Source: a candidate division FCPU426 bacterium
GTDB lineage: Bacteria > Oederibacteriota > JAAXVQ01 > JAUVAV01
Assembly: GCA_030637655.1 (NCBI GenBank)
Contig: DAOWGI010000092.1
Span: 26,161-90,160, forward strand
Direction: 5' to 3'
Length of the DNA stretch: 64,000 nucleotides
This document shows positions 1 to 63,952 of the stretch, piece by piece. Positions within the stretch are counted from its first letter, which is position 1; each line of letters opens with the position of its first letter. The notes beneath the pieces were generated by a model that saw nothing but the letters and a program-made list of their open reading frames with translations, was not told the DNA's origin and made no database searches. A program made the translations under genes and the position numbers.

Positions 1-3000
1 TTTTGAATTTTTTCGGATTATAGTCAGCAGATGGTTTAGATTTAACAACCTGGTTAGTCTTGGAATCATATCCAATTACCACAGGTGCGGCACCGACTTT
101 TCCCCTTAACAACTTCTTTATTTTTCCCGCTGGAAGAAACACATGGCAAACAGGAGGATTTTCAAATGAAGTAAAAGTCTCGGTTTTATCTTCAATATCA
201 AATACGTATTGTTGTGTTTTAGATTCGATTGCTTTTCGTGCGTATTCCTTCTGCTTTTTATTGTATTCCTGAATCGGTTTATCAGCGCGTTCAAACCCAA
301 CATTGGGAATAATTGTCCGATCACCGGTTGGTATTCCAAAAACATTTAATATATCAACATCAAATCCCCAACAGTTATCGCCAAACAGTTTATCGTACAA
401 AATATACGGCCCATTTATTTTTCCCTTTGCCATTTCAATAATCTTCGTATCAGTCGCCGGATCGGTCAAAATAACCTGAACCCGGTCATATCCAGGATGT
501 GCTGCAAAAAATTCACCTAATGTTGGATATGGTTTTTCGGGGTGCGTATTCAAATGATTTTCAGCTTTCAAGTGATTACCCAATCCATATTGGCCCAAAT
601 AATATTTCAAAGCTATTACATCCATCTGCTTGCCGTCTTTGCTGAAATAATGCCAGCCGCGCACATCATCGCCGACAAGTAAAGCGCTATGGCCTGCATA
701 GCCCCATGGCAAGGGAACTGCGTTCGAATTATTAAGTACTATTGTATATAATCCAAAGGGATCCATATAATTCACAGAATTATTTTCTGCAAATTCATAG
801 AGATTCTGCCCGCCATAATACCCAATCGGATCTGATTGAATAAACCTTCCCAGCACAGGATCATAATGCCTGGCCCGGAAATAATAGAGACCTGATTCCC
901 GGTCATATTCCCGGCCTGTAAACAGGTATCTGTTTGCAGCCTTTGGTTTTTGTGCCGGCTGTCCAAAAGTATCATACGTATATTTTTCTAAAATCCCGGT
1001 CTCATCCATCACAGCCGAAATGGATTTTTGCGCATCTTTTAAGTAATAATATTGTTTGTCTTTACTGATTTTAATCAGCAGGTCATCCACGCCGGGAGCA
1101 TATACATACTTGGCAATAATGTTATTTTGGTTGTCCAAATCAGCAATAATATTGTGCTGAGCATAGACATACTGTTCCTTTATTTCATCATTGACAGCTC
1201 TTTTTGTCCGCCTGCCAAAGCCATCGTAAGAATAAGCATATTTCCCTGAATTCGTCCGTATTTCCAGCAAGCGATTTTCAAGGTCATATTTATATTCCTT
1301 TTTATTCTTCCCGCTTCCGCTTAGCACAAGATTTCCATTTTGATCGTAAGCCAACCGGCTGGAATTGACTCGCATATATTGATTCAAAGAATTGGCTTGA
1401 TAATTAAATTTAGTATTCCCTATTTTTGTCTTAACCCTGTTTCCCAGGGCGTCATATTGATAGGACTCAACCGGGCGATCAGGCTTCCCGGCCTGGATCA
1501 CTTGATATTTATCATCGTATATATATTGCGTCATACCTTCATCACTATATTTTCTGGTCACATTTCCTATTTCGTCGTAATCATAACGCACAAAGGATAT
1601 TTGCTTACCCTTGAAGTAATTTTTAATTTCTTTAATCCAGGAAGTATTATAATAGAGATAGGATGTCCGGATATTTTCACCAAGATATAGAAATTTCCTC
1701 CTGGACAGCTCATCCCATTCCATTTTCACAAGCTGCTTACCCGCCGGATCACTTATTTGAACCAACCGATCTGAAGCATCATAGGAATATGTAAGATAAT
1801 ATCCATCCGGATAGGTCAAACGGCTGATATTGTTGCTGCCAGCATAATAATAGGATACTCTCATCTTCCTGTGATCAGTAACATTTTCAATCCGGCCCAA
1901 GTCATCATAAATATATTTCAATATTCCTTCACCATCATTTATTTGTTCAATCTGTGATTTCCAGTTGTAGGTATAGCTGATTATTGCTTGATCGGCATAT
2001 TGTTTTTCAATCAACCGGTTCAATTTGTCATATTTCAGAATCTGTTTTTTTCCATTACGATCTGTTTGGGATATGACATTGCCATAGCGGTCATACTCCA
2101 AGCGCTCGCTTGATCCATCCGGATAGGTTATTTTGATCAATTGATTATTATCATCGTATAAATACAGGGTTTTATTGTTTTTAGGATCTGTAATGGAAAG
2201 AATATTGCTTTTTCCTGAAAGCAGGTTATCCGCTGTTTCGTAGGTATACTGTGTGCTATATCCCAGAGGATTTGTAAATGTAACCACATTTCCAAACACA
2301 TCATATTCATATTTTGAGCTATTGCCTTTGGGATCTTTAACCTGACTGAGATTGTTCATGGCATCAAATTCATATTCAATGCTGTTTCCCGCAGGTTTTA
2401 TCTGCTTTGCCAATTGTCCCTGTCGATCATATTCAAAACGCGTTATTTCACCGGCTGCATTTGTTTTTTTTGATATTTTACCAAATTTGTTATAGCTATA
2501 CGTCTCCTGGGTGTTGTCCGGAAATATTCTTCTCGTCACCTCGCCCAGCTCATTGTACTCAATCCGCGTGGCATGGCCTTGGGAATTAATGATTTCTATT
2601 GGTTGGCCGTATTGATTGTAAGTAATTTTTGTTTCCCGGCCCAGGGCATCAATGACTTCAATCAAATTGCCCTGTTTGTCATATTTATATAGAGTTTTAT
2701 TGTTTTGCGGGTCTGTAACCAAAACCGGCCGGCTGCTTCCCTTCTGATATTGATATTTCAGCACCTGGTCTAAAGCATCTTTTTTCACAAGAATATTTCC
2801 GAGTGAGTCATATTGATATCGCGTTACTCGTTCGCCGCTTTCCCTCAATTCCAACAAATTATTATTGTCATCCCAGACATGCGTAGTCGGCACTTCATTT
2901 TTCAGACTGCCGGTTATGGCTTTGATTCTATTTCTTCCATCAAAATAATAATTGGTTTTCCGTCCTAAGTTATTGCTTACCATAACTACTGCGTCGCCAT

Positions 3001-3916
3001 ATATCAGCGTGGTAAATTGCTTCAAAGGATCGAGTAAACGCGTCACTTTCCCCTGACTGTTGTATTCAATTCCATATTCCCCCTCATTTTGTCCCATATA
3101 TTTGACAAGCCGCTGTTGGGCATCATATTCATATCGAATGGATTTCCGCAAAGAATTCGTGACTTTGACCAGCAATTGATTTTCATTATAGAAATACCGC
3201 CATTCGCGGCCGGCCGGGTCCTTCATTTTCCATAATTTTCCATCCGTATTATAATCAAGTTTAAAAACCCGGCCGACTGTATCAACTATTTCCTCTGGTA
3301 ATTTATTTTTATATCGAACTGTAATTTGGTTGTTGTTTCTGTCTTTTATGCTAATTATTTCCCCTTGTTTAGCATAGACTGTTTCGTTCCCATTTTTATC
3401 AATTCCGGCGAAGCCTATGGAAGTTTCTTTTATTTTTGTATAAACTCCTCTCGGAGTTATATATCCTCCATTCGCAGCAAGTTCATAGTAATCCATACCG
3501 CCATCAAGCTTATAGACAGACAAGCCGCCAGTGGTATGTTTAATCACTTTTTGGTCTAAAAATGTAGTCCAACCTCTTCCGCATATATTTTTCCCGGCTT
3601 TTTCCAATATTTCCCTATTCGTTTGTTGGCGACTGTTGTAAATACGATGAAATGCCATATCCAGACCACGGCCTGGAAAAACCATATCTTCTGAAGTTAT
3701 AATCAAATTCCCGTTAAACAACGTCACCGGCAAAGTCGTATTTGGTTGGCAAGGCTGATAGCCGGTTTTGTTATGAGTAATTTCTTTGCTCAATGTTTCC
3801 TCAATTTGATTGGATTTTCCAGACAGGTTTGTTGCTGCCTCCCTTGCATGGCAAGCGGATATGAAACTGCAAAACAACGAAACCATCATCAATAAGACAA
3901 TTTGTTTTAGTTTCAT
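1..3916 (-). CDS. RHS/YD-repeat polymorphic toxin, lipoprotein-type N-terminus; partial, C-terminal toxin domain continues past window start
   Basis: ATG at 3916 (MKLKQIVLLMMVSLFCSFISACHAR, signal peptide with Cys). No stop in this frame down to position 1, so the ORF is absent from the track because it runs off the edge. Many YD/RHS repeats of the type RYxYDxxGN. The RHS core end NYMDPFGLY is encoded at about 750-775. A C-terminal domain of about 250 aa of unknown family follows it. Region GC is roughly 35%, against roughly 50% elsewhere in the window. Confidence 0.85.
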   Translation of the reverse strand, partial: MKLKQIVLLMMVSLFCSFISACHAREAATNLSGKSNQIEETLSKEITHNKTGYQPCQPNTTLPVTLFNGNLIITSEDMVFPGRGLDMAFHRIYNSRQQTNREILEKAGKNICGRGWTTFLDQKVIKHTTGGLSVYKLDGGMDYYELAANGGYITPRGVYTKIKETSIGFAGIDKNGNETVYAKQGEIISIKDRNNNQITVRYKNKLPEEIVDTVGRVFKLDYNTDGKLWKMKDPAGREWRYFYNENQLLVKVTNSLRKSIRYEYDAQQRLVKYMGQNEGEYGIEYNSQGKVTRLLDPLKQFTTLIYGDAVVMVSNNLGRKTNYYFDGRNRIKAITGSLKNEVPTTHVWDDNNNLLELRESGERVTRYQYDSLGNILVKKDALDQVLKYQYQKGSSRPVLVTDPQNNKTLYKYDKQGNLIEVIDALGRETKITYNQYGQPIEIINSQGHATRIEYNELGEVTRRIFPDNTQETYSYNKFGKISKKTNAAGEITRFEYDRQGQLAKQIKPAGNSIEYEFDAMNNLSQVKDPKGNSSKYEYDVFGNVVTFTNPLGYSTQYTYETADNLLSGKSNILSITDPKNNKTLYLYDDNNQLIKITYPDGSSERLEYDRYGNVISQTDRNGKKQILKYDKLNRLIEKQYADQAIISYTYNWKSQIEQINDGEGILKYIYDDLGRIENVTDHRKMRVSYYYAGSNNISRLTYPDGYYLTYSYDASDRLVQISDPAGKQLVKMEWDELSRRKFLYLGENIRTSYLYYNTSWIKEIKNYFKGKQISFVRYDYDEIGNVTRKYSDEGMTQYIYDDKYQVIQAGKPDRPVESYQYDALGNRVKTKIGNTKFNYQANSLNQYMRVNSSRLAYDQNGNLVLSGSGKNKKEYKYDLENRLLEIRTNSGKYAYSYDGFGRRTKRAVNDEIKEQYVYAQHNIIADLDNQNNIIAKYVYAPGVDDLLIKISKDKQYYYLKDAQKSISAVMDETGILEKYTYDTFGQPAQKPKAANRYLFTGREYDRESGLYYFRARHYDPVLGRFIQSDPIGYYGGQNLYEFAENNSVNYMDPFGLYTIVLNNSNAVPLPWGYAGHSALLVGDDVRGWHYFSKDGKQMDVIALKYYLGQYGLGNHLKAENHLNTHPEKPYPTLGEFFAAHPGYDRVQVILTDPATDTKIIEMAKGKINGPYILYDKLFGDNCWGFDVDILNVFGIPTGDRTIIPNVGFERADKPIQEYNKKQKEYARKAIESKTQQYVFDIEDKTETFTSFENPPVCHVFLPAGKIKKLLRGKVGAAPVVIGYDSKTNQVVKSKPSADYNPKKFK

Positions 3917-4309
3917 TTATTTTTCTCCATCAATTTTGATATTATCATCTTTTTTAATTAAGTAATAAATCCCAGAAACAAAAATATAATAACTGACTCT
4001 GATTACATATAGGTTAATTGTCTTCGCATCAAACTGTAAAACTTCTCCTTTGTAAAATCTGATTAAATAATCAGCTATTTCAATTTGTATTAATCCAGTA
4101 AACATTATCAAGGCAGACACAGATGAGGATAGCCTCATTAACTTTGATATATTGATATTCAACAAAATATAGACAGCCGGATAAATAACAAATATGATCA
4201 AAATCATTATTAATAATTTTATATCTGTTAACTCCCCCCTCCGGCTATGCATAAATATCATAAACAAGATCGGAAATAAATAATTGACAATTAGCAATAT
4301 CCTCCCCAT
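3917..4309 (-). CDS. small polytopic membrane protein (about 130 aa, ~4 predicted TM helices), translationally coupled to RHS gene
   Basis: The ORF track gives 3917..4324. The first ATG (MRRCD) reads ATGAGGAGGTGTGAC, which is itself an AGGAGG Shine-Dalgarno placed 6 nt before the second ATG (MGRILLIVNYLFPILF...). The start is therefore probably at 4309. The stop TAA abuts the RHS ATG as TAAATG. The sequence is highly hydrophobic and AT-rich, like the RHS gene. Confidence 0.5.
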   Translation of the reverse strand: MGRILLIVNYLFPILFMIFMHSRRGELTDIKLLIMILIIFVIYPAVYILLNINISKLMRLSSSVSALIMFTGLIQIEIADYLIRFYKGEVLQFDAKTINLYVIRVSYYIFVSGIYYLIKKDDNIKIDGEK

Positions 4310-4523
4310 GTCACACCTCCTCATTCATGCTTATTAGTCGTCCATCCCAGACCGCATATAGTTTCAGATGTCCTACCGTCTATTTCCGTATCAGTCTGCC
4401 ACAGGTTGATTTGAAACCATTTACGCCTCCTTTTTTTGACGTAAACAGTTTGTCTTTCTTCGCTACCTTCCTGAAATTCTAATTGTCGTTGACAGGATTT
4501 TTAATTGCCGCTCATCACTACCC

Positions 4524-6050
4524 TCACAACCAGTCATCTACATACCTCTGGCAACCTTTGGAATGCAAACAGCCCATTCGAAATCCGGGCGGCAAACTGC
4601 CTGAAGGTAATATCCAATGCCATACGAAAATCGCTACAGCGTACACGACGATTCCCGCCATTAGCTTGGCGCCCAGGCCCAACCACCCGTCGAGAGGTAC
4701 CAGCCGGACTCCCAAGACCATGATGCTTCCGGAAAATAAATATACCGCAAGCTGCAGCCAATTTGGAAACAAATTAAAGTGAATTTTAATAAAACTCCAG
4801 TACAATCCCCCGCTCACTGCCATGGCCAGGGCAATAGCCATACCGGCACCCAAAATACCAAAACGCGGGATCAGAAACCAGTTCAAGCCGGCATTCACGA
4901 GCAGCACTACAGCCACAATGCCTACTACTACCTGTGGCTTGTCCTGGGAAAAAAAGACCGCGCCGGAATTGATCTGACAAGCCCAAAGCAAAGCATATAT
5001 CGCCAAGTAGAAAAAGAGCGGTTGAGCGCCCGCGAATTTGGCGCCCAAAAACAATTGGACCAAATCCGGGGCAATGGCCCACAGCCCCAGGGCTAAAGGA
5101 ATAGCGAACATGGCAATCAGACTGGTGGAAAAATGATAGTGATGGGCAAAGGCAGCGGAATCATTTTCTCCAACCGCTTCCACCAAACGTGGATAGACCA
5201 GCACGGCAATATAGGCAGGCAAGAGATAGACCACGCCAAAAAAGGCCAGCGCTCCGGAATACAACCCCGCGGATTCAGCATCTGTGAGCAAGCGGACCAG
5301 AAAAACATCCAAACGCTGGACCATGGTCTCCAACACCGCCAATAAAATCATCCACTTGCCAAAGCGGATCAGGTTGGAATAAAAATTTGGTTCAGGCGCT
5401 AATCGCGCGCGCCACAGATCCTGTCCCAAGCGCCAGGCCGGCCAGGCGCTTAATAATATGGGCGCTGCCATAAATATCAGATAGATACTTTTCGTGTTCA
5501 AGAGACCCAGGACAACCAAAACCCCGACCAATCCCAAACGCAGGGTATTAAAGGAGAGCACCAAATTGTAGGCTGTATAATTGTCCTCAGTTTGTGCCAC
5601 CGCAGAGAGAAATTGGCAGTAACTGATAAGCAGTCCGGTAAACATACCCAGAATAAAATACCAGCGCACAACCGGCAGCAATACATAACTAAGCATTGCC
5701 AGTACCACAAAAACACTGATCCCCAAGAGTGTTTTCAAGCGCAGCACAGCAGCATAATACTTTAGTTTCTCGGAAATTTCTCCGCGCGCCTGGTGAAAAG
5801 CGGAATAGCGCAGCAGGGTTCGGGTGAGTCCAAAATCAAACAGGATGGTTGCCACCAAGGCCGTAGATACAAAAAAGAAAAAATCTCCAAAAACTTCCGG
5901 ACCTACCAACCGGGCAATAAGAATGTTGATAAAAAACGCGCTGGCCGAATTAATAAGTTGGAAAAACGAAACGTGCCGGAAATTTTTCAGAAAAGTTTTG
6001 GTCTGTTGTTGCCGCGTTTCAGAAGCGCTCAACTCAAACGTACCCGCCAA
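4524..6050 (-). CDS. wzx: polysaccharide/O-antigen flippase (Wzx, MOP superfamily)
   Basis: A 508-aa polytopic membrane protein with 12 or more hydrophobic segments and a typical Wzx-like N-terminus (FFQLINSASAFFINILIARLVGPEVFG). The annotated start is TTG, so the exact start is uncertain. It sits within a sugar-nucleotide cluster. Confidence 0.7.
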   Translation of the reverse strand: MAGTFELSASETRQQQTKTFLKNFRHVSFFQLINSASAFFINILIARLVGPEVFGDFFFFVSTALVATILFDFGLTRTLLRYSAFHQARGEISEKLKYYAAVLRLKTLLGISVFVVLAMLSYVLLPVVRWYFILGMFTGLLISYCQFLSAVAQTEDNYTAYNLVLSFNTLRLGLVGVLVVLGLLNTKSIYLIFMAAPILLSAWPAWRLGQDLWRARLAPEPNFYSNLIRFGKWMILLAVLETMVQRLDVFLVRLLTDAESAGLYSGALAFFGVVYLLPAYIAVLVYPRLVEAVGENDSAAFAHHYHFSTSLIAMFAIPLALGLWAIAPDLVQLFLGAKFAGAQPLFFYLAIYALLWACQINSGAVFFSQDKPQVVVGIVAVVLLVNAGLNWFLIPRFGILGAGMAIALAMAVSGGLYWSFIKIHFNLFPNWLQLAVYLFSGSIMVLGVRLVPLDGWLGLGAKLMAGIVVYAVAIFVWHWILPSGSLPPGFRMGCLHSKGCQRYVDDWL

Positions 6051-13622: not shown

Positions 13623-15803
13623 TTATTCTCCGATCGAGACGCCCTCAGCGCCTCCCATGCCCAGTTTAAATTCAGGAAAGGCCTTAAGATTTATACCTAA
13701 TCCTACTTCCATATTTCCGTCCGAGTAAACTTTGACACCGGCATTCATGGCCCAGCAGTGCAAGTCCCGGGAAAGACTGAGCGAGAAATTGGTGAATTCC
13801 TTTTTTACTGCATCGTACTGGAGCACACTGTTTAAAGAGACGCCGGTTCCGGGCCGGAAACCGGCACTCAAGGTGCCAAATAAGGAATGATCCCGAATCG
13901 CGGTCCCGATATAGGAATACGAACCACTTATGGTCAGATTCCAAATCTTGCCATACATACTGCTGGACAAATAGGCGGAGGTAATACGTTCCCGCACCCA
14001 GGAGTGTTGTCCTTGCCCGGTTATGGATATCTGCGGACTGATAGTAGCTCTGCCATTAAAGGTCAAGATATCCATACGCTCACGCCAATTGTGGTTCTCT
14101 TCAAAATCAAGCAAATTATATCCGGTTGAGGTTTGTAAGGTTATAAAATTGCCCATGTAATAGTCAGTGGCTAGTCCCACACGATGGGATGTGATCCCAG
14201 CCCTTGGCAGACTGATATCCGCCAGCATGGGAAACTTGCGCGTGAACTCATGCGAGATACGGGTCTGCAGCAAGTGCGTTGGTTTAGTATAACGGTAATT
14301 GACCCATTTGTTGGTTAAGGTGACACGCGTGCTGTACGCGGCGTCCAATTCAGTTTGCCGGGTATCATAATCAGCATAAAAGGTTTCACGATACACCCCG
14401 GCAATCGGCAAATTCAAAGAGCCGGACAGACTGGGCTGGGTCACCACCCACACCGGTAGTGTGAGGGTCTGAGTAAAACCGGGTCTGACACTAAATGTGT
14501 CGCGGTATCGATAACGAATAGCTTCTGTCCCAATACGATCATAGGCGCGGTTAACAGAAGAATTAAAATTAAAATAAATGGGATAACGCATGTCCGCGAC
14601 TTTGCGGGAAGATAGCGAAAAATTTACCGTCGGCAATTCGCGGCTGGAAGTATAGTATTGATCCCGTTCCGGATCCAGGCTTTCCACATCACTGGCTCTC
14701 ATACTAAAATAGTAACCATCTCCACGATGCGAATACGCGAGATAGGATTTCTGCTGGAAAGTATCCACCAGATCGTATGAAAATTCACGGTTAAAGGTGC
14801 GGTCTGAGAGATAGTCCAGATTGAGCTGCAAGAGATCCCGATCCGTAAATTCATGCCGGTTGGACATATTCGCGGTCCAGCGTTCAACACCCTGTTCCTT
14901 ATCATTAACATACATGGCCAAAAGATCACCAGCGCCTTTTCCGTAGAATTCATATTCCAGATGATGGTCCAGCCCCACACCCACACCTTTTTTCTCCATA
15001 AAATCCAGTAAGATGCCGCCATAACTTTCTTTCCAGAGGTAATAATTAAAACGCAGTTTGGTAAAAAAACCCTCAAAATCATTGTATCCAATCCGGATCG
15101 AGAATGGCGTCCGGTTGTCTTTTAAAGAACGGCGGATCCAGGGCAGATAAAAGAGCGGCGTGGTTCCCACATACACAATGGCATGGTGCGCGGTTAAAGA
15201 GTCATTGAGGATAATATCGATCTGATCGGCTGTCAGGTGATAATGCGGATGACGGGCATTGCAGGTGGTAAAACGCGCGGCGCGAATAGTTACCTTGTCT
15301 TCGCCCTCTTTTTCCACGGATGCCCCTTGATAATACCAAGGATGCGTGGCAAACAAAATTCCCTGCATTTTAGCGCTGCGGGTTTCCAAATCATAATCCA
15401 ATTTGACACACCTGATTTTCCGCTGTTTTTCAATCAGCACCACATTACCTCTGGCATGTACCCAATTGGTTTCCATATTTGCTTGCGCTTGGTCGGCATT
15501 TAAGGTCACATTGGCATACCACACGCGAACATTACCCACTGCGGTGAGCACGCTATTTGCTTCCTCGTAATGAAAACGATCCGCAAACAAGGTGACTTTA
15601 TCAGGCGCTAAAACCTTGCCAACAGCCGTGTTGGACTCCGCCTCCGGTATAACCGGCGCTTCAGCCTGCACGACTGTTGGCACCAACACCGGCAGTGCCA
15701 AAATCAGCAGTAAAAAAAGTGGCGTGCCGCTATGCGACACGCCGGTCATCAGTTGTCTCATGGTATGCTCTCGACCCGGATGGCAGCAGTCGCCCGGGGA
15801 CAT
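13623..15803 (-). CDS. lptD: LPS-assembly outer membrane protein LptD (OstA family)
   Basis: N-terminal OstA-like domain (FADRFHYEEANSVLTAVGNVRVWYANVTLNADQA) plus a large C-terminal beta-barrel. Signal peptide MRQLMTGVSHSGTPLFLLLILALPVLV. An alternative ATG is at 15761. The ATG at 15803 overlaps the TAA of the upstream ABC gene as TAATG. Confidence 0.8.
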   Translation of the reverse strand: MSPGDCCHPGREHTMRQLMTGVSHSGTPLFLLLILALPVLVPTVVQAEAPVIPEAESNTAVGKVLAPDKVTLFADRFHYEEANSVLTAVGNVRVWYANVTLNADQAQANMETNWVHARGNVVLIEKQRKIRCVKLDYDLETRSAKMQGILFATHPWYYQGASVEKEGEDKVTIRAARFTTCNARHPHYHLTADQIDIILNDSLTAHHAIVYVGTTPLFYLPWIRRSLKDNRTPFSIRIGYNDFEGFFTKLRFNYYLWKESYGGILLDFMEKKGVGVGLDHHLEYEFYGKGAGDLLAMYVNDKEQGVERWTANMSNRHEFTDRDLLQLNLDYLSDRTFNREFSYDLVDTFQQKSYLAYSHRGDGYYFSMRASDVESLDPERDQYYTSSRELPTVNFSLSSRKVADMRYPIYFNFNSSVNRAYDRIGTEAIRYRYRDTFSVRPGFTQTLTLPVWVVTQPSLSGSLNLPIAGVYRETFYADYDTRQTELDAAYSTRVTLTNKWVNYRYTKPTHLLQTRISHEFTRKFPMLADISLPRAGITSHRVGLATDYYMGNFITLQTSTGYNLLDFEENHNWRERMDILTFNGRATISPQISITGQGQHSWVRERITSAYLSSSMYGKIWNLTISGSYSYIGTAIRDHSLFGTLSAGFRPGTGVSLNSVLQYDAVKKEFTNFSLSLSRDLHCWAMNAGVKVYSDGNMEVGLGINLKAFPEFKLGMGGAEGVSIGE

Positions 15804-32692: not shown

Positions 32693-34837
32693 TTAGCCGA
32701 AAAAAATTTCAATCCGAGATCCATTTTTGAGTGGTGTGGTAAATGCCGCTTTTTGTCCATCCACCATCAATTGTATGGTCCCGGCATTGGGAGGTGGTGT
32801 GAGATCCAGACCCTCCAAAATATGTGACAACGTCGGAGAATAACTTTCTTTTTTTTCTATCACAATCTCAGCATTTTCAGGAACTAAGGCATCAGGTGTT
32901 GCTCCCTCACCATTGATGGTTATCCTCTTGCCGCCGCTATCCAACATTTTGGTTTTTCCATTTACGGCGACTGAAATCTGATTGGACGGTGGAAGTTCAA
33001 TTCCTAAATCGCGCATGCGCAGTTCAACCATATCCGTCTGTTTCCATTCAATCCGGTCATTGGGACGAGGACAATAGTCAATAGTTACGTTTTGCCGGTT
33101 GGCGAGAATAACTGTTCCGTATTCCCGGTGAACTTGCTTTTGTTCTCCATTCACAAAAAACCGGACCTGTTTCGAAGTGGCGGCAACCGCGGATAATTCC
33201 GGCATCAATTCTCCCAAGGTTTTTTGTGAGCCCCAGTTCAACTCAGCCCGATCCGGGATTTCCGCCTCTGGATCAACCGGTTGATCTTGCTGCCTCAGCA
33301 CCGGTTCCAACTCCAGGTTGTGTCCATTACAGGTACACCAAAAAGGACCCCCTGGACGAGGAACATCTACCGCCTTTAAACGCGCGGCCCGTCCATTCAC
33401 AGCAGCCGTCAGTTCAATGTCATCACCAGCCTGAACTACGGTATCCAACGTGGCTGGTTTGGAATTGAGTTTTATTTCCGCCAAGGTTCCGAGGGTCCCG
33501 GGAACGGTCATCAGACGGCCGGCCAAAGTATAGGTTATAGCCTGGCCAGGCCGCGGATGCAGTGATTTCATCTCTTTGCCGGCTGAGAGCAGCGCTTCAA
33601 AAACCGTCGGCTTACTACTTAAGGCTAAAAGCTGAATCGGTTGTTTATTAACATAAGCAGTAATAAAACGGAGTCCTTTGCCACGCGAAGCCAGCAACGC
33701 GATTCCCAAGGGGGTTATCCCCTCAATGCCTTTGAGTGTGGGTGTGGGGTTTTCCAGTTCAGGGATGGTTTCCGGTCCCCGACATCCGACCCGTGACGGA
33801 TCCAGTTTTAGAGCTTCTGCCACGCTTGGTCCCAAGCCCGGTGTCGCGCTGCCGCCGCCTACCATGACCACTGCCCGAGGAACAGCTCCGTTTAATTTTA
33901 TAATGGTATCGGCAATAGCTTTGGCCAGTTTTTTCACATCAGGTTGGAGGTTCTGCCGGATTTCTGCGGCAGAAACATTCATTTTTTGGCCAAGAATGGT
34001 GGTAAAGCCCAGCCGGGCATCCCCGGCTGTTTCCAATGCGCGTTTTACTTTCTCAGCCTCATTGAATTCCAAAAGGTAATGTTCGCACAAGCGCTCGGTA
34101 ATTTCGTCACCGGCGTGTGTGACCATGGCATAAGCAAAAACCGAGCCATTGCGAGTAATGGCAATATCCGAGGTTCCCGCGCCCACATCCACCAGGGCAA
34201 TATTCATTCTCCTTAGATCATTCGGAATGGTCGCTTCAATCGCCGCAATAGGCTCCAAGGTCAAACTGCGTGCGGCCAGATTCGCACGTCGCAAAACCGC
34301 CATGAGCGAATCCACCACCTGACGCGGCAGAAAGGTAGCCAACACTTCAACTGACATTTCCTGCCCTTGATGTCCCACTAAATCATCCAACACTTCATTG
34401 TCCAGCCTAAAACGAATAGTGGAAAACCCAACACAATGCAATTGATGTTTGTTACCCTGGGAGTGTAAAGCTGTTTGCGCGGCCCGGGCGGCAGACAACT
34501 CCAAGGCCAGAACATCCTCTCGCGTAATTTCGGTCCTGGCAGGGAAATAGCGTTTTTGTTCGGCGGATTCGGTTAATAAAGCGCGACCCGCGGCAGCCAC
34601 GGCTGCTTCGGTCAATGTAATTCCCAGCTCTGCTTCCAACACCGCTTTGACCTGAGACACAACTTTGGCCACTGCTTCCACGCGATGCACCTGTCCACCC
34701 AGCATCGCACGATCAGGGTGTTCGTGTACACACGCAGCCAATACTTTCAGGCCCTGCTTGTGTTGCTTGACCACCACACCGGCAACTTTTCTGGTTCCAA
34801 TGTCCAAAATAAAAATAGTATCGTGCTTAGGACTCAC
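32693..34837 (-). CDS. actin-like (ASKHA; FtsA/EutJ/PilM-type) ATPase domain fused to 4-5 tandem ThiS/MoaD-like beta-grasp repeats; unknown function
   Basis: The N-terminal ~370 aa carry the phosphate-1 motif (FILDIGTRKVAGVVV) and phosphate-2 motif (ALVDVGAGTSDIAI). The C-terminal ~340 aa contain repeated modules of the form phi-x-phi-x-VNG...L..GD-IE-phi. Examples are ISVAVNGKTKML...AEIVIEK and IQLMVDGQKAAF...SRIEIFFG. GTG start with GTGA overlap onto the cheC stop. Confidence 0.6.
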   Translation of the reverse strand: MSPKHDTIFILDIGTRKVAGVVVKQHKQGLKVLAACVHEHPDRAMLGGQVHRVEAVAKVVSQVKAVLEAELGITLTEAAVAAAGRALLTESAEQKRYFPARTEITREDVLALELSAARAAQTALHSQGNKHQLHCVGFSTIRFRLDNEVLDDLVGHQGQEMSVEVLATFLPRQVVDSLMAVLRRANLAARSLTLEPIAAIEATIPNDLRRMNIALVDVGAGTSDIAITRNGSVFAYAMVTHAGDEITERLCEHYLLEFNEAEKVKRALETAGDARLGFTTILGQKMNVSAAEIRQNLQPDVKKLAKAIADTIIKLNGAVPRAVVMVGGGSATPGLGPSVAEALKLDPSRVGCRGPETIPELENPTPTLKGIEGITPLGIALLASRGKGLRFITAYVNKQPIQLLALSSKPTVFEALLSAGKEMKSLHPRPGQAITYTLAGRLMTVPGTLGTLAEIKLNSKPATLDTVVQAGDDIELTAAVNGRAARLKAVDVPRPGGPFWCTCNGHNLELEPVLRQQDQPVDPEAEIPDRAELNWGSQKTLGELMPELSAVAATSKQVRFFVNGEQKQVHREYGTVILANRQNVTIDYCPRPNDRIEWKQTDMVELRMRDLGIELPPSNQISVAVNGKTKMLDSGGKRITINGEGATPDALVPENAEIVIEKKESYSPTLSHILEGLDLTPPPNAGTIQLMVDGQKAAFTTPLKNGSRIEIFFG

Positions 34838-45615: not shown

Positions 45616-46722
45616 TTACTCCATTTGTCTCAGGGCGAGTCCCACCCCAATGTTAAACTTCTGCGCTTGCTCAAAAATAAACTCATGATCAAATTCTTTG
45701 TCCGGAATGATAATCTCGCGAAACGGATCATTGATCTCGACAGCCATATCAAATTTATCCGCTAAATATTTATCCAAACTTCTCAGCTTGCCGGAACCGC
45801 CGGACAGCACAATCCGGGAAATGGATTTCTTGCGAATGGAGCTTTCGTAATAATCAAACGAACGTTGAATCTCTGCGACCAGCTTGTTGAGCACCGGAGT
45901 AATAGCCTCGCCAATGCGCGCCGCATTGTCGTCTTCTTTGGGGATCGACATCTGCATAATATCTTCGGATTCAATCAAGACCTTACCGTCGGTTTTTTTC
46001 AAAGCCTCGGCATCCGCAAAGGTGATATCAAACTCGCGTTGGATTTCACGCGTAAAATTATTTCCTGCCACCGCCACATCACGGGTTAAGTGCGTCACAC
46101 CGTCTTCCAAAACATTAATAGTGGTCAGTTTGGCGCCGATGTTAATCAAACAGATGGTTTCCCCTTCATTCAACCCATAATTTAATTTATAAGAATTCTG
46201 CAGGGCAAAAGTGTCCACCTCAATAGCAATTGGATTTAATCCGACCAATCGAAGCAACTGGACATGCATATCAATAATTTCTTCCTTGGCCGCAACCAGC
46301 AACACCTCTATTTTTTGAATCCCCTCTTCTTCCACTTCTCCCAGAATGAAAAAATCCAAAACTACTTGATCAATGGCCAACGGTATGTACTGTTCCGCTT
46401 CCAGGGAAATAACATTTTTTAGTTCTTCCTCTGACATGAGCGGAAGTTTCACATAACGCACAATCACAGAATCACCGGCAATGGAAGAGACCACGTTTTT
46501 ACAGGTAATTTTATTTTCTTTGAGCACGCTTTTTATTGCTTCGGCGAGCATCTCATTACGCAAGGCAGGATCCGCTTCTTCTTGAATTTCAGAAGCAATT
46601 TGCATGCTGGCCAGGCTCTCCAGACGTTGCCGCTCGCCTTTTTTCTGGAGCTGAACAACTTTCACTGTATGACTTCCGATATCCAAACCAATCAGTTTTC
46701 GGCTTTTAAAGAAATCTAACAC
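45616..46722 (-). CDS. pilM: type IV pilus assembly ATPase-like protein PilM
   Basis: Actin-like fold (IGLDIGSHTVKVVQL). GTG start with an AGGAGG SD 5 nt upstream. Confidence 0.85.
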   Translation of the reverse strand: MLDFFKSRKLIGLDIGSHTVKVVQLQKKGERQRLESLASMQIASEIQEEADPALRNEMLAEAIKSVLKENKITCKNVVSSIAGDSVIVRYVKLPLMSEEELKNVISLEAEQYIPLAIDQVVLDFFILGEVEEEGIQKIEVLLVAAKEEIIDMHVQLLRLVGLNPIAIEVDTFALQNSYKLNYGLNEGETICLINIGAKLTTINVLEDGVTHLTRDVAVAGNNFTREIQREFDITFADAEALKKTDGKVLIESEDIMQMSIPKEDDNAARIGEAITPVLNKLVAEIQRSFDYYESSIRKKSISRIVLSGGSGKLRSLDKYLADKFDMAVEINDPFREIIIPDKEFDHEFIFEQAQKFNIGVGLALRQME

Positions 46723-62096: not shown

Positions 62097-62153
62097 GGCG
62101 ACCGCAAGGATCGCCCCTACGGTTAATCACGGGCGCACTCAGTGCGCCCCTAC
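62097..62153. repeat. tandem REP elements: family C (gggcgaccgcaaggatcgcccctac) + family A (gggcgcactcagtgcgcccctac)
   Basis: Seen directly. The terminal CTA of family A forms the lepA TAG stop codon (62150-62152). Confidence 0.8.
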
Positions 62154-63952
62154 TCATCACCCAGTTTCAGTACTGCCAAGAACGCCTTTTGCGGGATTTC
62201 AACATTACCCACGTGCTTCATCCGTTTTTTACCCTCTTTTTGATTCTCCAACAATTTCCGTTTGCGCGTAATGTCACCGCCGTAACATCTGGCAATAACA
62301 TCTTTTCGCAGCGCACGAATACTCTCGCGCGCAATGACCTTCGCGCCGATCGCTGCTTGAATCGGCACCTCAAACTGCTGGCGCGGTATGATTTTTCTTA
62401 ACCGGCCGGCCAATACCCTGCCCCGGCCTTCGGCAAAATTACGATGGCACATAAAAGAGAGCGCGTCCACAGGCTCCCGATTGACCAGGATATCCACTTT
62501 TACCATATTCTCCCGACGGTATCCGGCCGGTTCATAATCCATGCTCGCGTAACCGCGGGTGCGTGACTTGAGTTGATCAAAAAAATCCGCGATCACCTCA
62601 ATCAAGGGCAAATGATAGGCAATCTTAACACGTGTGGTATCCAGGTACTCGGTATTCTCATACACCCCGCGGCGTTCCTGCGCGAGCTGCATAACCGCTC
62701 CCACATACTCCGAAGGCACCAAAATAGTAACATACATATACGGTTCTTCAATATAATCAATCTCATCCAAGGGCGGCAGCTTGGCTGGATTGTCCACTTC
62801 CAGCACATCCTTATTGGTTTTGTGCACCCTAAAAATCACGGAAGGCGCGGTAGCAATCAAATCCAAGTTAAACTCACGCTCCAGGCGTTCCTGAATAATT
62901 TCCATATGCAACAGACCCAGGAATCCGCAACGGAAACCAAACCCCAAAGCAGTAGAATTTTCCGGTTCGTAAAAAAGTGAGGCATCATTGAGTTTTAATT
63001 TTTCCAGGGCCGTACGCAGATTTTCAAATTCTCCGGCTTCAATCGTAAAGAGACCGCAAAAAACCATGGGCTTGATCTCGCGAAAACCTACTAGCGCTTC
63101 TATGGTTGGACGTTTGTCCTCTGTGACCGTATCGCCCACTTTGACATCTGAGATATTCTTAATACCGGCAATCAGATACCCAACCTCACCGGCGGAGAGC
63201 TTATCCACCGGCTGGGCATTGGGAGTAAATATACCAACCTCATCCACTTCATAGGCCGTATCTGTTGACATCATACGGATGGTCATACCCTTTTTGATCC
63301 GGCCGTCCATAATCCGCATATACACAATAACCCCGCGATAGGTATCAAAATGAGAATCAAAAACCAGGGCTTTTAAGGCTGCGTTCTCGTCCCCGCCGGG
63401 CGCGGGGACCTTGCGCACAATAGCCTCCAGAATTTCTTCAGTCCCTTGACCGGTCTTAGCAGACGCGACCATAGCCTCATCTCCGGGTATTTGGAGCACT
63501 TCCTCAATCTGATGGATAATCTCATCCGGACGCGCAGCCGGCAGATCAATCTTATTTAATACCGGCAGCAAAACCAGGTCATGCAAGATGGCTAACTCAG
63601 CATTTGACAGGGTCTGAGCTTCAATACCTTGCGCCGCATCCACCACCAGCAAAGCTCCTTCGCACGCAGCCAAAGAGCGGCTCACTTCATAATTAAAGTC
63701 CACGTGACCTGGCGTATCAATGAGATTGAACTGATAGGTCTGCCCATCTTTAGCGTGATACATCAAGCGCACAGCTTTAGCCTTGATGGTAATCCCGCGT
63801 TCCCGCTCCAGATCCATGTCATCCAAGATCTGTTCACGCATATCGCGTTTGGAGACCGTATGGGTAAATTCCAAAATACGATCAGCCAGAGTGGATTTCC
63901 CGTGGTCAATGTGCGCGATAATACTGAAATTCCGAATATTTGGATTAGCCAT
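62150..63952 (-). CDS. lepA: elongation factor 4 (LepA)
   Basis: G-domain motifs ([21 protein letters not shown]). LepA-specific C-terminal domain. Confidence 0.95.

Follow-up and report, generated by a model that had tools for sequence, protein, structure and literature searches.

A 64,000-nucleotide (nt) stretch of DNA from a candidate division FCPU426 bacterium (GenBank assembly GCA_030637655.1, contig DAOWGI010000092.1, positions 26,161 to 90,160), hereafter the window, carries at its beginning, on the minus strand, an Rhs polymorphic-toxin gene that is coupled to an upstream gene for a small membrane protein of 130 amino acids (aa), TM130. The toxin is of the ordinary Rhs class; what is unusual is that its putative protector genes are embedded between repeated toxin-gene starts. 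The design of this locus, with paralogous membrane immunity-like genes on both sides of the toxin gene, bracketing by repeats of the Rhs 5' end and arrays of N-terminal stubs elsewhere, is new, and nothing here overturns knowledge of polymorphic toxins. The explanation that we favour, and to which we give a little better than an even chance, brings together a horizontally acquired Rhs island, a TseH-like toxin that would act on the envelope, membrane proteins that would confer immunity, and recombination through the repeated Rhs 5' ends.

The Rhs Gene and Its Predicted Lipoprotein Signal

The exact 130-aa sequence of TM130 is on record on five nearly identical metagenome contigs, and the island locus was recovered almost unchanged from three samples; the samples of these contigs were taken at Site-F, a cold seep of the South China Sea (PRJNA707313; PMC9357000). 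The longest contig, L001, differs from the window at 4 of 14,309 nt, all of them away from the island, and the portion of the genome covered is about 70 kb. Extension along this contig, which a first-pass annotation of the window had proposed, yielded the whole Rhs protein of 1,394 aa (L001 10394-14578, a 4,185-nt open reading frame (ORF)), whose final 89 codons and stop lie past window position 1, together with a second membrane-protein gene, TM138. The protein is recorded at NCBI as MCK5240863.1, 'RHS repeat protein [bacterium]'.

The Rhs precursor begins with a K-rich n-region and a hydrophobic core followed by ISAC, which fits the lipobox pattern [LVI][ASTVI][GAS]C, and related Rhs starts and stubs from other loci are likewise of lipobox type (LAGC in the locus L006, MGC in the locus L011). 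The precursor is predicted to be Sec-exported and lipidated, in agreement with the lipoprotein-like signal of the first-pass annotation. That annotation had also described dozens of YD repeats, a mild overstatement, since the repeats are present as 13 stretches of Pfam RHS_repeat (E 4.7e-86) and 19 counted motifs of the type Yx[YF][DN]; they are accompanied by an NCBIfam YD_repeat_2x match (E 2.6e-68) and a partial match to RHS_core. The boundary sequence NYMDPFGLY lies where it had been placed, with DPFGL at aa 1052-1056 (nt 749-763), and DPFGL is expected to be the site of autoproteolysis. The shell matches the solved Rhs shells that belong to type VI secretion systems (T6SS), including 7q97 (E 6e-59), 8h8b, 8qjb, Tse5 and Tse15, as well as teneurin-like proteins and TcC. 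With its repeat shell, its Rhs core ending in a DPxGL motif and a separate variable tip, the gene has the sequence features of a genuine Rhs polymorphic toxin that bears a lipoprotein signal.

The Toxin Tip

Every match to an Rhs shell in the PDB ends at aa 1055-1061, and the 338 aa that follow DPFGL are therefore not shell. The earlier reading of the tip as an unrecognised domain, distinct from the shell and absent from domain libraries, holds, but its length had been put at about 250 aa, close to the 253 codons that lie in the window, and the first half of the tip is TseH-like. The part in the window matched nothing in Pfam, NCBIfam or PDB sequences, and a profile search against PDB sequences and a word-indexed single-sequence search with the tip were both empty. 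An exhaustive phmmer search of 1.84 billion representatives recovered, besides the tip itself, five weak relatives (E 2e-07 to 9e-04), which are all Rhs ends that start directly after DPxG. A profile made from the tip relatives raised the number to 42 proteins, mostly short ORFs, the few with a source name being from Treponema, and a Pfam domain for the toxin region was found in none of the 42. Homologues of the tip terminate Rhs proteins that are otherwise different. In an alignment of 21 sequences, two residues are invariant, His27 and Cys133 (NC motif), which correspond to His1076 and Cys1182 of Rhs; a conserved His upstream of a conserved Cys in an NC motif is the arrangement of permuted papain-fold, NlpC-P60-type enzymes such as YiiX C92, PPPDE and LRAT-like hydrolases. 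By alignment, the opening ~165 aa of the tip are a member of a rare family of His/Cys domains.

The fold was approached by AlphaFold2 (AF2) modelling. A model of the tip from its single sequence reached a pLDDT of 30, and a model of the toxin domain with a 6-sequence alignment as input reached a pLDDT of 72.9 and a pTM of 0.72. The latter agrees in fold with the TseH crystal structure, and Foldseek ranked TseH first too (probability 0.91, TM 0.53, E 0.1). Likenesses were listed also for YiiX (9.2), a YiiX-like peptidase of B. cereus (8.1), the MARTX RID acyltransferase domain (7.6), PPPDE/DeSI (6.3), CLN5 (6.3), Aichivirus 2A and PLAAT4. The Pfam family of TseH, PF25218, was not matched by the window sequence and was matched weakly by 2 of the 21 relatives (best E 0.048); one sub-threshold match was near end-to-end, covering profile positions 34-161 of 167. 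By the Pfam criterion, the tip domain is outside PF25218. The model places the domain in the His-before-Cys, permuted branch of the papain/NlpC-P60 superfamily, and we conclude that this part of the tip, its first ~165 aa, is a predicted cysteine hydrolase distantly like TseH, whose most likely target would be the envelope. TseH is toxic only on periplasmic targeting, with rounding and lysis, and is neutralised by the product of a neighbouring gene (PMC4453574); the catalytic mutant in use is H64A (bioRxiv 10.1101/2021.05.27.445954).

There are also two Treponema-like metagenome loci (L092 1-4982 and L094 1-5220) in which a short orphan ORF for a homologous toxin domain lies downstream of a large Rhs gene; of these Rhs genes, one has TcdB_toxin_midN and another a Phage_lysozyme tip. 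Each of these orphan ORFs is paired with its own small membrane-protein gene, and in L092 a PemK toxin-antitoxin pair lies between the cassettes.

A Family of Small Membrane Proteins Between Repeated Toxin Starts

As the first-pass annotation had read it, the gene ahead of Rhs encodes a 130-aa protein with four hydrophobic segments whose TAA abuts the Rhs ATG. Its start is fixed at ATG 4309 by the Shine-Dalgarno sequence GGAGGTG; a 135-aa reading from ATG 4324 is absent from public assemblies, whereas the 130-aa product is on record. TM138, an ORF of 138 aa, begins 304 nt past the Rhs stop on L001, and the spacer holds terminator-like hairpins and a relic of the Rhs 5' end. The stop of TM138 overlaps the ATGA that opens an 11-codon Rhs stub (MKKSAVLLLGA and stop). 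An immunity gene had been expected just past position 1, and an immunity-type gene is indeed there, although it is set off by the spacer and not tightly linked to the tip. The upstream gene, which had been taken for a separate accessory beside that immunity gene, proved to belong to the same family: TM130 and TM138 are paralogues, 38% identical from end to end (E 5e-25).

Six members of the family are intact; public data contain four sequence clusters, and two more copies were read on L006. The ratio of nonsynonymous to synonymous substitution rates (dN/dS) is 0.14-0.44 for all pairs, TM138/TM137 included. With TM130 as the query, a word-index search gave, apart from TM130, only two relatives, which come from other metagenomes and are 55-59% identical to it; TM138 forms a separate cluster. 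No member was found in GTDB species genomes or JGI metagenomes, a search of JGI metagenomes with the Rhs N-terminus was likewise empty, and Pfam, NCBIfam and PDB, profile search included, gave no fitting family. Within TM138 there is a (TA)n run (IYIYINIII segment; L001 15033-15058), and the two recorded TM138 variants (P0004 and P0005) differ only by I51Y, at this repeat.

Directly upstream of TM130 lies a relic of Rhs 5' coding sequence whose reading frame is lost, detected by nhmmer with a DNA profile from three intact Rhs 5' regions, and a second relic stands directly upstream of TM138 (L001 14744-14853, E 1e-07); for relics and stubs together the nhmmer E values are 3e-08, 1e-07, 1.5e-09 and 3.5e-23. 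The same junction is found upstream of TM130, TM138, TM137 of L006 and TM134 of L011, and all four share the endpoint ...ICG-GW(TT), about 15 nt before the Shine-Dalgarno sequence. The common endpoint thus defines a repeating unit that consists of Rhs codons up to ~117, a TM gene, and Rhs from codon 1 onwards; every gene of the family has a relic of Rhs codons ~80-117 in front of it, and its stop abuts or overlaps the Rhs start downstream.

The unit is repeated most fully in L006, a 3.5-kb locus seen in five sequencing runs, with a host of about 68% GC. Its order is TM136, a 54-codon Rhs stub, TM133, a 115-codon stub with a weak DUF6531 match, TM137 and a 34-codon stub, and TM137 is the orthologue of TM138 (65% identity). 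The TM paralogues of L006 have a mutual identity of 42-46% and the junction DNA beside them one of 76-80%, and the first ~30 residues of the Rhs stubs are nearly the same. On the short contig L011, an Rhs stub that ends in ...ICGRGW with a stop is followed by TM134 and then by an Rhs start that runs off the contig end. The best-conserved DNA between units is the TM 3' end leading into the Rhs 5' end, where L006 has 76-80% identity over 189-257 nt and L001 has 71% over 84 nt. Divergent, intact paralogues kept also where the toxin gene is missing, as in orphan or tandem immunity arrays, are seen in both L006 and L001.

The whole TM/stub array of L006 is bracketed by a direct repeat of about 51 nt (positions 21-71 and 2362-2412, 80% identity), which contains a CACCCCGG-GAAA-CCGGGGTC hairpin and a TGGATTCCGGCT motif. 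In L001, the TM138 stub is closely followed by a hairpin element of similar kind (15355-15440, ~1.1 kb past window position 1). The repeat may be of the interspersed kind, or it may mark a boundary of the island.

Putative Immunity and the Alternatives to It

On balance, the TM proteins are somewhat more probably immunity proteins than not. TM136, TM133, TM137 and TM138 are intact beside nothing more than Rhs stubs of 54, 115, 34 and 11 codons, respectively, and purifying selection is seen in all TM pairs, also in TM138/TM137, neither of which has an intact Rhs gene behind it. The divergence of the L006 TM copies, set against the near-sameness of the stub starts, fits a diversified repertoire of protectors and not specific partners of the Rhs N-terminus. 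In four of five distant loci with the toxin domain, the next gene overlaps the domain or starts 5-17 nt after it, in the classical slot of an immunity gene, and encodes a small protein (127, 137, 158 and 167 aa) with 4-5 membrane segments; the fifth has a 113-nt gap and then a soluble 122-aa protein. The distant membrane proteins fall into two sequence families, and by this analogy the toxin type would recurrently pair with small polytopic membrane proteins. The structural model suggests a toxin that acts in the periplasm, for which an envelope-located protector would be expected, as for periplasm-acting toxins in general (PMC3482391). Whether the cognate protector would be TM130 or TM138 is, to us, about equally probable. 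In favour of TM130 are its coupling to the Rhs start and the fact that TM genes and Rhs starts are matched one to one; in favour of TM138 is its place on the canonical downstream side.

Several points weigh against the favoured explanation. TM130 is upstream of Rhs and translationally coupled to it, which is atypical for an immunity gene, and TM138 is split from the tip by the spacer with its terminator-like hairpins. There is no detectable homology between the TM130 family and the membrane proteins of the distant loci (hhalign probability below 1%); on this profile-profile result a single family for both was dropped, and the argument from the distant loci is thus one of analogy only. A single full-length Rhs of the lineage is on record, and the five near-identical contigs hold no informative variation for covariation of tip and TM protein. 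The toxin-domain fold was assigned from an AF2 model built on six sequences, with a Foldseek E of just 0.1, and the family stays below the Pfam TseH threshold, P0014 scoring 12 bits against PF25218 where the cut-off is 27. The tail of 173 aa behind the toxin domain matches neither Pfam nor PDB sequences and is missing from other members of the toxin-domain family. Lastly, no PAAR, VgrG or other T6SS gene occurs among the 36 window ORFs scanned; the Rhs N-terminus is a lipoprotein signal without a PAAR match in Pfam, and in the ~70 kb covered the locus does not resemble a T6SS-delivered Rhs.

TM130 might instead be a dedicated accessory of Rhs, a membrane partner for its export, anchoring, maturation or release, comparable in role to MafA ahead of MafB or to the Eag/DUF1795 chaperones ahead of T6SS Rhs, with TM138 serving a second, decayed unit and the true immunity gene being absent or unrecognised. 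We think this rather improbable, even though the position of the gene speaks for it: in every unit the TM gene lies upstream and its stop touches or overlaps the start of Rhs, L001 and L006 each contain as many TM genes as Rhs starts, and there is a precedent in MafA, an accessory gene ahead of each full-length toxin gene (PMC3482391). The lack of homology between the TM family and the proteins presumed to give immunity to this toxin family in other loci fits an accessory as well. An accessory would, however, hardly be kept intact and under purifying selection where its partner Rhs is cut to 11-115 codons, nor would the TM copies of L006 be expected to diverge so far beside nearly constant stub starts; moreover, Rhs has a Sec/lipoprotein signal of its own, and the island offers no other candidate immunity gene. 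A further alternative is a role as small holin-like or pore-forming factors that release Rhs or its freed tip in the style of a lysis cassette (type 10), by which Tc and other large toxins are set free, a role which we regard as the least probable of the alternatives. The size of 130-138 aa, the several membrane segments, the charged C-terminal tail (KKDDN...) and the place beside a large toxin gene would suit such proteins, but the island has no endolysin or spanin partner, Pfam holin families gave no match, Rhs carries its signal peptide, and L006 retains several divergent intact copies without a toxin gene.

It is also improbable, to nearly the same degree, that the island is a decaying remnant without current function, in which Rhs is intact by chance and the TM genes and relics are debris of duplication. 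The relics, the 11-codon stub and the extreme rarity of the TM family in public data are what decay would leave, yet the 4,185-nt Rhs ORF is uninterrupted in spite of its AT-rich sequence, all catalytic and boundary motifs are kept, dN/dS of the TM genes is well below 1, and the same locus is near-unchanged in three samples.

A Possible Mechanism

In the favoured explanation, which takes the TM proteins as immunity proteins, the Rhs precursor would pass through Sec and then be lipidated; its shell would enclose the tip, and autoproteolysis at the core would release it. The tip, a permuted-papain cysteine hydrolase like TseH, would damage the envelope of a competitor (peptidoglycan or lipid) from the periplasmic side, and the TM proteins would neutralise it at the inner membrane of the producer. 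The relic upstream of TM138 and the intact Rhs codons ~80-117 form direct repeats about 4 kb apart. Homologous recombination between such 5' repeats would delete the Rhs body and leave TM130, Rhs(1-117) and TM138, a structure that equals the TM133, 115-codon stub, TM137 order found in L006; it may thereby give rise to disarmed-but-immune variants, such as the arrays of the L006 type, and would explain the shared breakpoint.

More tentatively, and with less confidence than in the explanation above, the locus may represent an 'immunity-first', T6SS-independent kind of Rhs system, in which polytopic membrane immunity genes are translationally coupled upstream of lipoprotein Rhs genes and stand, each of them, between direct repeats of the toxin 5' end. 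N-terminal recombination, and not the classical C-terminal displacement, would then toggle the locus between armed-and-immune and disarmed-but-immune states and shuffle cassettes between hosts of 47% and ~68% GC.

A Foreign Island in a Polysaccharide Cluster

In the favoured explanation, window positions 1 to ~4420 are the greater part of an island, ~5.5 kb long and acquired horizontally, inside a cell-surface polysaccharide cluster. Over positions 1-4400 the GC content is 0.380, and other 4.4-kb windows have 0.440-0.505 (mean 0.472, standard deviation 0.015), a deficit of about 6 standard deviations; along the sequence, GC runs at 0.31-0.42 from 1 to ~4400 and at ~0.45-0.52 past 4500, with a step at ~4250-4750. 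The AT-rich character that the first-pass annotation had noted is thus real, and windowed GC shows the shift, but its size is smaller than proposed, 38% against 47% and not 35% against 50%. Third-position GC (GC3) follows the same course: it is 0.376 in Rhs and 0.32 in TM130 (island range about 0.29-0.38), as against 0.48-0.58 both in the polysaccharide genes nearby and in dnaK, lepA and topA, which are housekeeping genes. In both GC and GC3 the island is compositionally foreign, in keeping with the horizontal acquisition that had been suggested.

An O-antigen-like cluster had been described as adjacent to the toxin genes. Polysaccharide genes are confirmed, with a Wzx-like flippase, epimerases and LPG_synthase_TM (Pfam) in the window, but on the far side of the island L001 continues with a methyltransferase and then an epimerase, and the island therefore interrupts the cluster and does not border it. 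The spacer between the flippase stop and the island holds only weak promoter-like matches. The module is AT-rich in both of its hosts, with 47% GC here and about 68% GC for L006, which indicates horizontal spread. A conserved insertion site was ruled out, as the epimerase of the L006 array is not orthologous to that of this cluster (at most 30% identity, over short stretches). Beyond TM138, a stretch at 3-5 kb past window position 1 (L001 17338-19185) includes a second low-GC patch (0.36-0.38); the genes of the stretch, a Polbeta-type nucleotidyltransferase and an Unstab_antitox-family gene with a small partner, resemble toxin-antitoxin modules.

Likenesses to Known Systems

The toxin gene shares with T6SS Rhs proteins (Photorhabdus Rhs1 7q97, Vibrio RhsP 8h8b, Tse5), WapA and TcC the YD shell, DUF6531, a core ending in DPxGL, a variable tip beyond the shell, adjacent small genes of protector type and a foreign composition. 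Eag/DUF1795 chaperone genes precede T6SS Rhs genes. Unlike T6SS Rhs proteins, the protein described here has a lipoprotein signal in place of PAAR/VgrG/Eag features, and T6SS genes were not found nearby; unlike the usual orphan 3' cassettes of tip and immunity gene, its leftovers are 5' stubs joined to membrane-protein genes. TseH of the TseH/TsiH pair of Vibrio cholerae (PF25218; PDB 6v98) is a stand-alone T6SS cargo of 223 aa, whereas the domain here is an Rhs tip followed by a 173-aa tail, its similarity lies below the Pfam threshold, and its putative protectors are four-segment membrane proteins.

The nearest parallels to the arrays come from type VII secretion systems (T7SS), in which tandem paralogous immunity genes, esaG and tipC, recombine through conserved blocks, and in which TsaI neutralises a membrane-acting toxin (PMC9484751). 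Arrays of esaG, tsaI and tipC, and orphan immunity islands, share with the present loci divergent small protector paralogues by a toxin locus and conserved blocks that permit recombination, loss and expansion. In contrast to esaG and tipC, the blocks here are pieces of the 5' end of the toxin gene and do not lie inside the immunity genes, and, unlike in esaG, tsaI and tipC arrays, one array member is upstream of and coupled to the toxin gene. In the MafA-MafB system of Neisseria, too, every full-length polymorphic toxin gene has a gene for an envelope protein immediately upstream (PMC3482391). MafA, however, is a conserved, non-polymorphic lipoprotein, whereas the upstream proteins here are polytopic, highly divergent and kept without a toxin.

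Features and Other Genes of the Window

Table 1. Features of the Rhs island and its left edge (window positions).
Feature	Position	Strand	Evidence or remark
C-terminal tail, first half (tail ~173 aa, aa 1222-1394)	2..253	-	Continues past the window
Predicted His/Cys toxin domain with a TseH-like permuted papain fold, aa 1057 to ~1221	254..748	-	Candidate catalytic His1076 and Cys1182 (NC motif)
Rhs-associated core, aa 981-1056	749..976	-	NCBIfam Rhs_assc_core TIGR03696, E 2.1e-23
YD/RHS-repeat shell, about aa 180-980	977..3379	-	Pfam, NCBIfam
DUF6531, aa 63-139, N-terminal end of the shell	3500..3730	-	Pfam PF20148, E 9.5e-09
Predicted signal peptide and lipobox (MKLKQIVLLMMVSLFCSFISAC; Cys22)	3851..3916	-	Regex match ISAC, aa 19-22
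Rhs lipoprotein toxin gene (predicted), first 1,305 of 1,394 codons	1..3916	-	ATG 3916-3914, open to position 2
TM130, 130 aa, four hydrophobic segments, putative immunity protein	3917..4309	-	ORF; stop TAA 3917-3919 abuts Rhs ATG
Shine-Dalgarno sequence GGAGGTG, seven bases ahead of TM130 ATG 4309	4314..4320	-	Read from sequence
Rhs 5' coding relic (codons ~88-117) with the end ...ICG-GWTT, directly upstream of TM130	4314..4413	-	nhmmer E 3.1e-08
Spacer from flippase stop to island, left edge of the low-GC island, presumed promoter region	4414..4523	-	GC step

The remaining window is ordinary chromosome, with dnaK, dnaJ, lepA, topA, hslU, argG/H, aro genes, cheA and type IV pilus genes; the latter include the PilQ secretin, and the host, an uncultured bacterium, is therefore diderm. 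No RNA family was detected when the window was compared with Rfam. All 64 kb form a single co-directional block: of 46 ORFs that reach 200 aa, 44 are on the minus strand, and the two on the plus strand overlap longer minus-strand ORFs. Between the polysaccharide genes and an ABC-transporter ATPase there is a 726-aa ORF (13623-15803, minus strand) with no Pfam match at E <= 1e-5. A 714-aa protein adjoining cheA (32693-34837, minus strand) has a PilM/FtsA-like ATPase fold and, at its C-terminus, a weak ThiS-like part; the canonical PilM, of 368 aa, is a different protein, encoded at 45616-46722. LepA (62150-63952, minus strand) has at most 65% identity to its counterpart in any of 185,579 species-representative genomes, its best matches being scattered over Bacillota, Acidobacteriota, Nitrospirota and others, which marks the host as a deep lineage.

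Conclusions

Rhs toxins and the proteins that guard against them are among the chief means of bacterial warfare, and knowledge of them comes mostly from T6SS-linked proteobacterial loci. The present locus adds a toxin domain family that is missing from domain libraries and appears distantly tied to TseH, as well as a family of tiny membrane proteins that resemble immunity genes in their behaviour. The pieces of the toxin start around each putative protector gene would offer a simple recombinational way to drop the weapon and keep the shield. If this is true, it would widen the rules by which immunity genes are searched for, usually 'the gene just downstream', and would make clear how, in diderm bacteria, lipoprotein Rhs toxins exported through Sec operate.

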